Below are positions 24,075 through 27,362 of a stretch of 40,209 nt of DNA, piece by piece. Under the pieces are notes generated by a model that was not told the DNA's origin, ran no database searches, and saw nothing but the letters and a program-made list of their open reading frames with translations. The first letter of the stretch is position 1, and every line of letters starts with the position of its first letter. The stretch is taken from sequence record OZ035809.1. The stretch is one strand, 5' to 3'. The position numbers and the translations under genes are program-made. The DNA comes from Kayfunavirus T147P5.

Positions 24075-24145
24075 ACGTCTGGTCTACAATTTGTAGGTTT
24101 CTAGTCCAGTTGTTCCTACCATTTCAATCAAAGGAGAATGACTCA

Positions 24146-25069
24146 ATGTCCCAATCAGTTTATGCCGAGTTCGGCGTTAGCCCTAATGCAATCACTGGCT
24201 CCGTTGAGGACCTTAACGAACACCAGAAGTCTATGCTTGAACAGGACGTAGCTGTTCGCGATGGCGATGACGCTATTACCTTCAAGCAACTGGAAGCCGA
24301 AAACGAAGAGGCGACCGAAGAAGACGAGAACGTCGAAGAGGCTGAGGGTGAAGAAGACCACGAGTCCGATGACGAAGAGTCTGAGACCGATGGTGAGCAG
24401 CCTGAGTTCATCGAACTAGGTGATGCACCGAAAGAGCAGCCTGAGTTCATCGAACTAGGTGATGCACCGAAAGAGCTGACTGAAAGTGTCACCGCTCTGG
24501 ATGAAAACGAAGCTGCATTTGACGACATGGTGTCTTCTGCTGTAGAAGCTGGCAAGGTCACTGCTGATGAAATTACCGCTATCAAGGCTGAATACGCCAA
24601 GGACGGTAAGCTGTCTGACGCATCCTACGCTAAGTTGCAGGAAGCAGGTTACACCAAGCGCTTCGTAGATTCGTTTGTCCGTGGTCAGGAAGCTCTGGCT
24701 GAACAGTATGCCGCTGGTGTGGTTCGCTACGCTGGTGGTGCTGAACAGTTTAATCGCATCCTGTCACACCTTGAGTCCAACGACCCGTCAACTCGTGAAG
24801 CACTGGAAGCTGCTATCGTTCGTAAGGACATTGCGACTACCAAAGCTCTGCTGAATCTGGCTGGCAAGACTCTTGGTAAAGCTGTAGGCGTTAAACCTCA
24901 GCGTACCATCACCAATCAGGCTAAACCTGTGGTAGCACCTAAGGCTACTAAGACCGAAGCATTCAGCTCTAAGGCTGACATGATTAAGGCTATGAGTGAC
25001 CCGCGATACCTGCGTGACGCTAAGTACACGATGGAAGTGCGCGCTAAGGTAGCTGCATCGAGCCTGTAG
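24146..25069 (+). CDS. capsid assembly scaffolding protein (T7 gp9-like)
   Basis: Start at ATG 24146 (RBS AAGGAG 24131-24136) rather than 24110; acidic; VRDGDDAI, SYAKL.E.GYTK.FVDSFVRGQEALAEQY, IKAMSDPRY match T7 gp9. Confidence 0.85.
   Translation: MSQSVYAEFGVSPNAITGSVEDLNEHQKSMLEQDVAVRDGDDAITFKQLEAENEEATEEDENVEEAEGEEDHESDDEESETDGEQPEFIELGDAPKEQPEFIELGDAPKELTESVTALDENEAAFDDMVSSAVEAGKVTADEITAIKAEYAKDGKLSDASYAKLQEAGYTKRFVDSFVRGQEALAEQYAAGVVRYAGGAEQFNRILSHLESNDPSTREALEAAIVRKDIATTKALLNLAGKTLGKAVGVKPQRTITNQAKPVVAPKATKTEAFSSKADMIKAMSDPRYLRDAKYTMEVRAKVAASSL
24395..24472 (+). repeat. perfect 39-bp tandem duplication inside the scaffold gene
   Basis: GAGCAGCCTGAGTTCATCGAACTAGGTGATGCACCGAAA occurs twice back to back (24395-24433, 24434-24472), encoding EQPEFIELGDAPK x2 in frame. 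Confidence 0.9.
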
Positions 25070-25070
25070 G

Positions 25071-25093
25071 ACTAAACTATCACTATAGGGAGA
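25071..25093 (+). promoter_or_regulatory. phage RNAP promoter (phi10-like, strongest consensus match)
   Basis: TAAACTATCACTATAGGGAGACC with GGGAGA initiating sequence; about 100-nt leader before capsid gene. Confidence 0.85.
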
Positions 25094-25195: not shown

Positions 25196-26245
25196 ATGGC
25201 AAACGTTCCGGGTCAGAAAGTTGGTACAGACCAAGGTAAGGGCAAATCTGGTTCCGACGCTCTGGCGTTGTTCCTGAAGGTCTTTGCTGGCGAAGTCCTG
25301 ACCGCATTCACTCGCCGCTCTGTAACTGCTGACAAGCATATTGTCCGTACCATTCAGAACGGTAAGTCTGCTCAGTTCCCGGTCATGGGTCGCACCTCTG
25401 GTGTGTATCTAGCTCCTGGTGAGCGACTGTCCGATAAGCGTAAAGGTATCAAACATACCGAGAAAGTGATTACCATTGATGGTCTGCTGACTGCCGATGT
25501 GATGATTTTCGACATTGAAGACGCGATGAACCACTATGACGTGGCTGGCGAGTACTCCAACCAGTTAGGTGAAGCTCTGGCTATCGCTGCCGATGGTGCG
25601 GTACTGGCTGAGATGGCCATTCTGTGTAACCTACCGGCTGCATCTGATGAAAACATCGCTGGTCTTGGCAAAGCGTCTGTGCTGGAAGTTGGTACTAAAA
25701 CCGACCTGAACACCCCTGCTAAACTGGGTGAAGCAATCATCGGTCAACTTACCATCGCTCGTGCGAAACTGACCTCCAACTACGTACCTGCTGGCGACCG
25801 TTACTTCTACACCACGCCTGACAACTACTCTGCGATTCTGGCTGCTTTGATGCCTAACGCTGCTAACTACGCTGCTCTGATTGACCCTGAGACGGGCAAC
25901 ATCCGTAACGTAATGGGCTTCGTTGTGGTTGAGGTTCCGCACCTGACTCAGGGTGGTGCTGGTGAGACTCGTGGTGACGATGGTATCACTATCGCTTCCG
26001 GTCAGAAGCACGCCTTCCCAGCTACTGCCACTGGTGATGTTAAAGTTGCTCTGGACAACGTTGTGGGTATGTTCTCTCACCGTTCTGCGGTGGGTACCGT
26101 TAAACTGCGTGACTTGGCGCTGGAACGTGACCGTGACGTCGATGCTCAGGGCGACCTGATTGTTGGTAAGTACGCTATGGGTCACGGTGGTCTGCGTCCT
26201 GAAGCAGCGGGCGCACTGGTTTTCACAGCAGCGTCAGCGGGTTAA
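25196..26245 (+). CDS. major capsid protein (T7 gp10A-like)
   Basis: 349 aa; GTDQGKG, LALFLKVF.GEVLTAF, DKRKGIKHTEKVITIDGLLTADV, NHYDV, ALMPNAANYAALIDPE, MGHGGLRPEAAGA nearly identical to T7 gp10A. Confidence 0.96.
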   Translation: MANVPGQKVGTDQGKGKSGSDALALFLKVFAGEVLTAFTRRSVTADKHIVRTIQNGKSAQFPVMGRTSGVYLAPGERLSDKRKGIKHTEKVITIDGLLTADVMIFDIEDAMNHYDVAGEYSNQLGEALAIAADGAVLAEMAILCNLPAASDENIAGLGKASVLEVGTKTDLNTPAKLGEAIIGQLTIARAKLTSNYVPAGDRYFYTTPDNYSAILAALMPNAANYAALIDPETGNIRNVMGFVVVEVPHLTQGGAGETRGDDGITIASGQKHAFPATATGDVKVALDNVVGMFSHRSAVGTVKLRDLALERDRDVDAQGDLIVGKYAMGHGGLRPEAAGALVFTAASAG

Positions 26246-26508
26246 CGACCTTTAAGGCCCTCTCTACCGAGGGTCCTACCTTAGAGACGTATAGTTCTAC
26301 GGTGGGAACCAGCTTGAAGGTTGACTTCCCGGAGCTTTCAGATGTGACCGACTGGTCGCTGCTTGATGTTACTACGCCTGATGGTGTTAGTTACTCCCGT
26401 AGAACCAACAGTCTCTACTTCAAGGCCACCTCTGGCGTGGAAGGTCTAGTGATTGTTGAGTATGACGGTTCGCCTGTGCGTTCCTTCAACGTATCTTTCA
26501 CAAACTAA
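25196..26508 (+). CDS. minor capsid protein 10B-like; product of putative programmed -1 frameshift near 26218-26224
   Basis: Heptamer G GTT TTC lies 7 codons before the gp10 stop; the -1 frame is open from 26224 to TAA 26506-26508 and contains ORF 26302-26508. Confidence 0.5.
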
Positions 26509-26512
26509 TTGA

Positions 26513-26550
26513 AACCCCTTGGGTGCCTTCGGGTGCTTGAGGGGTTTTTT
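26513..26550 (+). terminator. T-phi-like intrinsic terminator after the capsid gene
   Basis: AACCCCTTGGGTGCCTTCGGGTGCTTGAGGGGTTTTTT: long GC-rich stem with UUCG loop and U-tract; very similar to T7 T-phi as recalled. Confidence 0.85.
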
Positions 26551-26568
26551 GCTTAAGGAGTAAAACCT

Positions 26569-27135
26569 ATGGCTCAATACGTTCCACTGAATGCTAACGA
26601 TGACTTAGATGCCATCAACGATATGTTAGCAGCTATCGGTGAACCAGCAGTCCTACAACTTGACGAAGGCAACGCTGACGTCTCGAACGCTCAACGTATC
26701 CTGCATCGTGTCAATCGTCAGGTCCAAGCTAAAGGCTGGAACTTTAACATCAACGAAGCTGCTGTCCTGACGCCTGATGTCCAAGACAACAGGATTCGAT
26801 TCCTGCCGTCTTACCTTCGGGTCATGACTGCTGGGGCCACCAGCTACTACAGCAACATGGGTGGATACCTATACGACCTGTCAACTCAGTCAACCACTTT
26901 TACCGACCCTATAACGGTAGAGCTTGTTGAGATGAAACCGTTCTCTGAGATGCCTGTGGTATTCAGGGACTACATCGTTACCAAGGCCAGCCGTGAGTTC
27001 AACGCTAAGTTCTTCGGTAGCCCAGAGTCTGAACTGTACCTTCGTGAGCAGGAAGCAGAACTCTATCAGCAGGTCATGGAATACGAGATGGACACTGGTC
27101 GCTACAACATGATGTCCGACATCGGGAGGGACTAA
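26569..27135 (+). CDS. tail tubular protein A (T7 gp11-like)
   Basis: 188-aa ORF immediately after the T-phi-like terminator; RBS AAGGAG; size and position as T7 gp11. Confidence 0.88.
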   Translation: MAQYVPLNANDDLDAINDMLAAIGEPAVLQLDEGNADVSNAQRILHRVNRQVQAKGWNFNINEAAVLTPDVQDNRIRFLPSYLRVMTAGATSYYSNMGGYLYDLSTQSTTFTDPITVELVEMKPFSEMPVVFRDYIVTKASREFNAKFFGSPESELYLREQEAELYQQVMEYEMDTGRYNMMSDIGRD

Positions 27136-27362
27136 TGGCTAGTCACAACCTGAAGATTCACCGCCAGCACTTTGGGCCGGTACAACTAGGTCTAAAGACA
27201 GCAGAGCTGAGACTTAACGACCGGGACTTTAAGGTTGGCGACTGGCTTATCCTGAATGAGTGGGACAACGGGTATACTGGACAGCAGGTAGCACGTAAGG
27301 TTGTCCACATTGCTGACGTTGGTAACATCGCTGAGGGATACGTCCTAATGAGTATGATTTAA
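27135..27362 (+). CDS. hypothetical small protein inserted between tail tubular genes (possible ASCH/PUA-like fold)
   Basis: 75-aa ORF, ATG overlaps gp11 stop; no T7 counterpart; the fold suggestion is from general appearance only. Confidence 0.5.
   Translation: MASHNLKIHRQHFGPVQLGLKTAELRLNDRDFKVGDWLILNEWDNGYTGQQVARKVVHIADVGNIAEGYVLMSMI

Follow-up and report, generated by a model that had tools for sequence, protein, structure and literature searches.

A T7-type -1 frameshift at the capsid gene's end in Kayfunavirus T147P5 probably appends a predicted Ig-like domain

The DNA analysed here (hereafter the window) is the complete 40,209-nucleotide genome of Kayfunavirus T147P5 (OZ035809.1), a K1F-like phage of the Studiervirinae, and our subject is the 3' end of its major capsid protein gene, 10A. 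At this place the phage very probably makes a longer capsid protein, 10B, through a -1 slip of the kind known from T7, and in doing so adds an immunoglobulin-like (Ig-like) domain. Over the 1365 nucleotides (nt) that span the capsid gene and its extension, the window matches 461 phage records, the best of them Kayfunavirus genomes (closest examples: Escherichia phage 216Ecol046PP, 97.5%, and phage Peacock, 95.8%). The relatives of 10A in the PDB include 9vvq (5.6e-214), 7y23 and the T7 10A entry 2xvr (1.3e-144). Based on the list of open reading frames (ORFs), the translations, database matches and structure predictions, the locus is organized as follows:

25196-26245, + strand: major capsid protein gene 10A, 349 residues, 0 frame (ORF list; Pfam Gp10A-like, 6e-104).

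26218-26225, + strand: putative T7-type -1 shift site, the slippery heptamer G GTT TTC with a conserved 3' A (sequence, identity with T7, conservation).

26224-26245, + strand: dual-coding overlap, read TAASAG-stop in the 0 frame and HSSVSGL in the -1 frame (translations).

26224-26280, + strand: linker of the predicted 10B extension, -1 frame, ~19 residues, HSSVSGLTTFKALSTEGPT (low-confidence part of the model, coding signature).

26255-26277, + strand: predicted hairpin within the RNA that encodes the linker; it begins 30 nt 3' of the heptamer (folding, synonymous-codon randomisation).

26281-26508, + strand: predicted Ig-like beta-sandwich, extension residues 20-94, with the motifs VTDWS and RRTNSLYFK, plus the stop codon TAA (26506-26508).

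26302-26304, + strand: GTG codon used by gene callers as the start of a 68-residue "hypothetical protein", corresponding to Val27 of the extension (ORF list, records).

26511-26550, + strand: Tphi-like intrinsic terminator with a 17-bp stem, a UUCG loop and a U-run (architecture matching T7 Tphi).

The heptamer GGTTTTC occupies 26218-26224, where the capsid frame reads CTG GTT TTC (Leu341-Val342-Phe343) and splits the heptamer in the X XXY YYZ pattern, and Phe343 is the seventh codon before the capsid stop, the heptamer being followed by six sense codons (TAASAG) and then by TAA at 26243-26245. At the homologous codons (…RPEAAGA-V/L-V-F) the T7 record has GTG GTT TTC, i.e., an identical heptamer, together with an annotated joined 10B. 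An earlier note, written from the letters of the window alone, had taken the heptamer for the T7 gene 10 shift site and had placed it seven codons before the stop, and both statements are borne out. The heptamer count alone is not significant, since the window contains one copy of GGTTTTC where 3.9 are expected by chance.

After a slip of one base the sequence reads GGT TTT CAC AGC..., in a frame that is open from 26203 to 26505 and closed by the TAA at 26506-26508. The earlier note had the end of this frame right and its beginning too late (26224), and its extended capsid product stands with 94 added residues instead of about 95 (HSSVSGLTTFKALSTEGPTLETYSSTVGTSLKVDF…VSFTN). These would replace the six last 0-frame residues, such that the predicted product has 343 + 94 = 437 residues vs. 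349 for 10A, with YAMGHGGLRPEAAGALVFHSSVSGLTTFK as its trans-frame junction peptide and ALSTEGPTLETYSSTVGTSLK, VDFPELSDVTDWSLLDVTTPDGVSYSR and ATSGVEGLVIVEYDGSPVR as extension-specific peptides. As also proposed there, the extension ends just before the terminator, namely two bases upstream of it. From the frequency of stop triplets, the probability of a 101-codon open frame arising by chance is ~0.006. We tried as a further statistic how far the -1 frame stays open past a stop, and rejected it as non-discriminating, because in such a tightly packed genome neighbouring genes often occupy that frame. On the sequences available, the weight of the evidence for a functional shift is comparative, and does not come from single-sequence chance figures of this type.

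To this end we assembled 31 related sequences, taken from GenBank phages and from IMG/VR contigs and representing at least eight genera, including T7 (Teseptimavirus), K1F and many Kayfunavirus, CR8 (Caroctavirus), KP32-like phages (Przondovirus), PP47 and Q19 (Pektosvirus), and JA10 and Sibilus (Ningirsuvirus). At the same Val-Phe codons, all 31 have an in-frame NGTTTTCA (N being G in 27, A in two and C in two), the -1 frame is open across the slip site in every sequence examined, and it is intact in 30 of the 31 relatives. When 18 capsid genes (≥70% protein identity) are aligned by codon, only 31 of the 187 degenerate columns with an invariant amino acid are codon-invariant as well, and among the 15 invariant valine columns this holds for a single one, the GTT of the heptamer. 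The phenylalanine codon TTC of the heptamer is invariant too, and carries no special weight given the codon bias at this residue (four of eight Phe columns are invariant). The base immediately 3' of the heptamer (window 26225) is A in 31/31 sequences despite a 0-frame residue that may be Thr, Ser or Lys, which points to an octamer as the conserved element. As far as these alignments can tell, the slip site is conserved at the nucleotide level beyond what amino-acid conservation accounts for.

The distribution of variable sites over codon positions, counted in 15 ungapped Kayfunavirus sequences (≥80% identity), follows the same boundary (variable sites at positions 1/2/3):

300 nt upstream of the heptamer, 0 frame: 9/6/62.

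Overlap, 26224-26245: variation spread across all three positions.

26246-26301, -1 frame: 5/5/11.

26302-26505, -1 frame: 15/12/43.

After the extension stop, -1 frame: 6/7/7 (flat).

At the slip site, the coding signature thus passes out of the 0 frame and into the -1 frame, and it is already that of the -1 frame in the 56 nt preceding the first possible start codon (GTG 26302). Consistent with these counts, the homology of the extension to KP32-like phages (tblastn, ~44% identity) starts at the first residue after the slip.

We next modeled the extension with AlphaFold2 from a 20-sequence alignment, and obtained a mean predicted local distance difference test score (pLDDT) of 79.9. Residues 1-16 have a pLDDT below 50, and residues 20-94 form a seven-strand beta-sandwich (block pLDDT 86-91), i.e., the extension is confidently predicted to be a flexible linker followed by an Ig-like beta-sandwich. 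When compared to viral structure models with Foldseek, the prediction first retrieves a "minor capsid protein" of PP81 and then mostly Ig-like or carbohydrate-binding phage proteins. At the sequence level the extension belongs to PHROG 7473 (annotated as of unknown function), has no Pfam match at E ≤1 and, used as a profile against the PDB, retrieves nothing at E <0.9; no similarity to any recognised family of Ig-like sequences (Big_2, I-set, FN3) appeared in Pfam, in the PDB or in comparison with the T3 Big_2 domain. An exhaustive profile search against 1.8 billion representatives returned 18 proteins at E ≤0.001. The distant matches are tandem-repeat surface proteins, aligned over their BACON, He_PIG or Big_1/invasin repeats, including a BACON-repeat protein matched at 9.5e-13 over its BACON region (the extension itself does not match Pfam BACON).

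The Ig-like beta-sandwich is a typical fold of phage surface decorations, with T4 Hoc, the C-terminal domain of lambda gpV and the BACON, He_PIG and Big_1 repeats as comparators, although none of these families matches the window extension directly in Pfam. The linker and sandwich predicted by AlphaFold2 and Foldseek thus lend support to the suggestion, also made in the earlier note, of a capsid decoration domain, and the predicted domain would most likely act as a weak adhesion or decoration module.

The model also bears on how the extension has been annotated. The window genome and most of its relatives list it as a separate hypothetical protein of 64-87 residues only, and PHROG 7473 was itself built from such short ORFs, from which one could argue that the distal part is an independent 68-residue gene initiated at GTG 26302, with no frameshifting involved. 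This GTG (Val27) comes after the first predicted strand (residues 21-26), so the 68-residue "gene" would encode a truncated domain. Nor is the start codon conserved: the first ATG, GTG or TTG falls at extension residue 8, 9, 11, 13, 21, 25, 26, 27, 31 or 33 depending on the lineage (in the window, no -1 frame start codon precedes 26302), which is why the ORFs called over the extension vary from 54 to 87 residues. No Shine-Dalgarno sequence was found upstream of GTG 26302, and none that would be usable at the first start codons of the relatives, such that PHROG 7473 members lack the conserved start codon and ribosome-binding site expected of an independent small gene. Since the coding signature and the cross-genus protein homology both reach back to the slip site, upstream of this GTG, we give this alternative very little credence. 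A word-indexed protein search for a natural in-frame fusion of capsid and Ig-like domain retrieved short gene-caller ORFs only, and the exact 437-residue fusion was not found in the protein collection. Two Klebsiella phage records with only a "major head protein" label over the extension are likewise separate ORF calls.

The programmed -1 ribosomal frameshift of T7 gene 10A/10B was reportedly described by Condron, Atkins and Gesteland in 1991 (review: PMC5009743), and Fraser et al. are said to have found Ig-like domains appended to phage proteins by frameshifting, for example in T3 10B. The window resembles T7 in its identical G GUU UUC, placed at homologous Val-Phe codons close to the capsid gene's 3' end, in a -1 ORF overlapping the 0-frame stop, and in the Tphi-type terminator with CCCC that follows the extension. 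It differs in the extension itself, which in T7 is low-complexity and charged (…TLTPAQEAARTRAANKARKEAELAAATAEQ) rather than Ig-like, and in the distance from shift site to terminator (~200 nt in T7, 291 nt in the window). The window extension is longer than that of T7, as the earlier note had said (94 vs. 56 residues, the latter having been given as 53), yet this length is nothing special, as the two are different modules and the one in the window is widespread. K1F, the type species of the genus, has the same heptamer at the same position, but a short T7-type tail of 48 residues.

Direct evidence for a long form comes from several of these relatives. T7 makes 10B at ~10% (PMC1635266), slippage at TTTTC(A) was proven by mass spectrometry for Kvp1 10B (PMC2579914), and a K1F g10b::gfp construct, with green fluorescent protein (GFP) at the C-terminus of the -1 product, assembled into virions and gave viable fluorescent phage (PMC6277420). 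Among phages with the same extension as the window, Peacock has these two frames joined in its record as a minor capsid protein, with an extension ~97% identical to that of the window. The CR8 10B, of the same extension family (51% identity), is annotated as a -1 frameshift join with a "tttt" slip site, and its record notes "matches in mass spectrometry analysis". The genome announcements of CR8 and Peacock do not discuss 10B.

Across the subfamily, gene 10 extensions fall into at least three unrelated types: the short charged tail of T7 and K1F, the Big_2-like domain of T3, and the present Ig-like domain, which occurs in part of Kayfunavirus and in CR8-, KP32-, PP47/Q19- and JA10-like phages (454 records by tblastn). 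In T3 and phiYeO3-12, as predicted for the window, a -1 frameshift at the homologous end of the capsid gene appends an Ig-like (Big_2) domain (PMC5009743). The slip site there is a different one, C CCA AAG (Pro-Lys), four codons downstream (1917-1923 in L029, the T3 sequence); T3 has no GTTTTC, reading ATC GTG CTC at that place, and the T3 and window extensions have no detectable sequence similarity (best local BLASTP E 0.5). One subfamily thus combines, at the same capsid C-terminus, two different slip sites with three unrelated extensions. As the K1F and window sequences diverge ~10 nt after the heptamer, extension modules have been exchanged at the slip site, which fits the description of Ig-like domains as promiscuous and expressed via frameshifts (PMC5009743).

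A further alternative is that the -1 ORF is an unexpressed or decaying remnant of a module acquired by recombination, with the heptamer kept only for the Val-Phe of the capsid. One Kayfunavirus, L025 (IMGVR_UViG_2974604219_000001, 1660-1800), has the extension intact for 53 residues; from there on, unrelated DNA takes the place of the distal half and of the Tphi terminator, and encodes a small hydrophobic peptide (…MIMFYLLTALGLFVSFWAIILLTGP…) immediately upstream of gene 11. Such a domain, dispensable in at least one natural genome, would suit a remnant, as would the different and short extension of K1F itself and a heptamer count in the window that is not above chance. However, a remnant leaves the synonymous constraint on GTT, beyond the reach of protein conservation, unexplained, and fits poorly with a strong third-position bias, a frame kept intact across relatives down to ~40% protein identity, and a confident, well-folded domain model. 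We therefore consider it the least credible of the alternatives, and the loss in L025 says nothing against expression of the domain in other genomes.

As to structure in the RNA downstream of the heptamer, the 121 nt that follow it fold with a z-score of -3.1 (only -0.93 for the first 76 nt), and the hairpin at 26255-26277 does not reach significance by dinucleotide shuffling in the window itself. A long-range stem in the minimum free energy structure of these 121 nt (ACCTTTAAG with CTTGAAGGTT) was discarded, as in HC12 both sides are altered and a C-A mismatch results (pairing by hand). Synonymous-codon randomisation, which keeps the peptide, was applied to the 60-nt block just past the 0-frame stop (window 26248-26307), i.e., the linker-coding region. 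In the window this block is more stable than randomised sequences, with z-scores of -3.0 to -3.3, as it is in other lineages with the Ig-type extension (EcpYZU01 -3.8, KP32 -4.9, JA10 -4.9, Q19 -2.8, PP47 -2.2, EV136_1 -1.8), and in 7/7 Ig-type genomes it is more extreme than each of the 31 capsid-gene blocks. The corresponding block has no excess structure in T7 (z -0.7) or K1F (z +0.5). Hairpins lie at homologous linker positions in six relatives (L005, L008, L013, L014, L006 and L007), with different sequences. For 12 downstream regions aligned with MAFFT, RNAalifold found no consensus pairs, which reflects an alignment that is too divergent, and a search of 26000-26700 against Rfam gave two sub-threshold chance matches and no frameshift element.

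The spacer between heptamer and hairpin (15-30 nt) is too long for the hairpin to be a likely classical stimulator, but the hairpin may modulate frameshifting. The terminator could be relevant as well: its CCCC (26515-26518) lies 291 nt 3' of the shift site, and in T7 the CCCC of a terminator >200 nt downstream contributes to frameshifting through a mechanism left unexplained (PMC5009743). It is tempting to go further and speculate that the linker hairpin is an undescribed long-spacer element that sets the 10A:10B ratio or is needed for expression of the trans-frame domain, and that a BACON-like module exchanged at the slip site would provide glycan or mucus binding, a combination that we nevertheless judge rather unlikely.

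Taken together, the homologous site, the synonymous constraint, the -1 coding signature, the cross-genus homology and the joined annotations in Peacock and CR8 argue, at the level of sequence comparison, for the programmed T7 10B-like frameshift and extended capsid protein that the earlier note had put forward. The following organization of events is thus proposed. Most ribosomes would stay in the 0 frame as far as its stop (26243-26245), producing the 349-residue 10A; for a minority, a slip of one base backwards on G GUU UUC would let tRNA-Val and tRNA-Phe pair again on GGU UUU, as in the tandem slippage described for T7, where X_XX is G_GU (PMC5009743). The slipped ribosomes would continue in the -1 frame to 26505, yielding a 437-residue minor capsid protein 10B composed of residues 1-343 of 10A, a flexible linker of ~19 residues and a 75-residue Ig-like beta-sandwich. 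Because 10B would keep the whole capsid fold, it is expected to co-assemble with 10A, and the Ig-like domain would then be displayed on the outside of the head. The C-terminus of T7-type capsid proteins is exposed, which is the basis of T7 display. For T147P5 we infer the slippage itself, its efficiency (~10% in T7), the surface display of the extension and any binding function.

Several observations weigh against this frameshift reading. Protein-level evidence for the long form comes from relatives only (T7, Kvp1, the K1F GFP fusion and the CR8 record note), and the mass spectrometry note for CR8 is not confirmed to cover junction or extension-specific peptides. Some lineages have A or C as the heptamer's first base, so that re-pairing in the ribosomal P site is not conserved. 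The natural loss of the distal half in L025 indicates that the Ig-like domain is dispensable. In a sliding 120-nt scan with dinucleotide shuffling, the fold downstream of the heptamer (z ~-2.3) is no outlier within the gene. Lastly, when looking for a downstream stimulatory structure, as suggested in the earlier note, a classical stimulator (stem or pseudoknot 5-9 nt downstream) was not evident, and the hairpin at 26255-26277, with its longer spacer, was found instead.

The same -1 fusion could also be produced one level earlier, by the phage RNA polymerase slipping on the T run and deleting one base from the mRNA. Sequence analysis does not separate these two levels, and the site does include a homopolymeric T4 run, although a short one. 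Transcriptional slippage typically needs runs of 7 or more A or T. Moreover, what is conserved is a pair of tandem codons, GUU UUC, in a fixed frame, a feature relevant to tRNA re-pairing but not to slippage of the polymerase, and the T7 gene 10 case has been classified as ribosomal (PMC5009743). Slippage during transcription is thus hardly credible here, and we retain the ribosomal -1 shift.

The frameshift as such is the known T7-type gene 10 mechanism, and the same extension is already annotated in Peacock and CR8. Novelty is therefore low, with the product annotated in near-identical as well as related phages, and the understanding of frameshifting is unchanged. The main value of these results lies in annotation: several hundred records of Kayfunavirus, Przondovirus and other Studiervirinae mostly file the extension separately, and their "hypothetical protein" or "minor capsid protein" of 54-87 residues should be a trans-frame capsid fusion. 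Two by-products are the model-based assignment of an Ig-like fold to PHROG 7473 and the RNA structure in the linker region. The probable display of an Ig-like domain on a flexible linker, for which ~40 copies would be expected if the efficiency of T7 applied, bears on the adherence of therapeutic phages to mucus or tissue and on their immunogenicity, and is relevant where K1F-like phages are used for display at the C-terminus of 10B.

Elsewhere around the capsid gene, a sequence resembling a phage RNA polymerase promoter, ACTAAACTATCACTATAGGGAGA, lies at 25071-25093 between genes 9 and 10, ~100 nt upstream of the capsid start codon, and is similar to T7-group promoters (phi10 position). The scaffolding protein gene 9 (24110-25069) includes a perfect tandem duplicate of 13 residues (EQPEFIELGDAPK) inside an acidic region. 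Finally, a 75-residue ORF (27135-27362) is found between the tail tubular genes 11 and 12, where T7 has no gene, and its homologue in Enterobacter phage EV136_1 is annotated as DUF3850.

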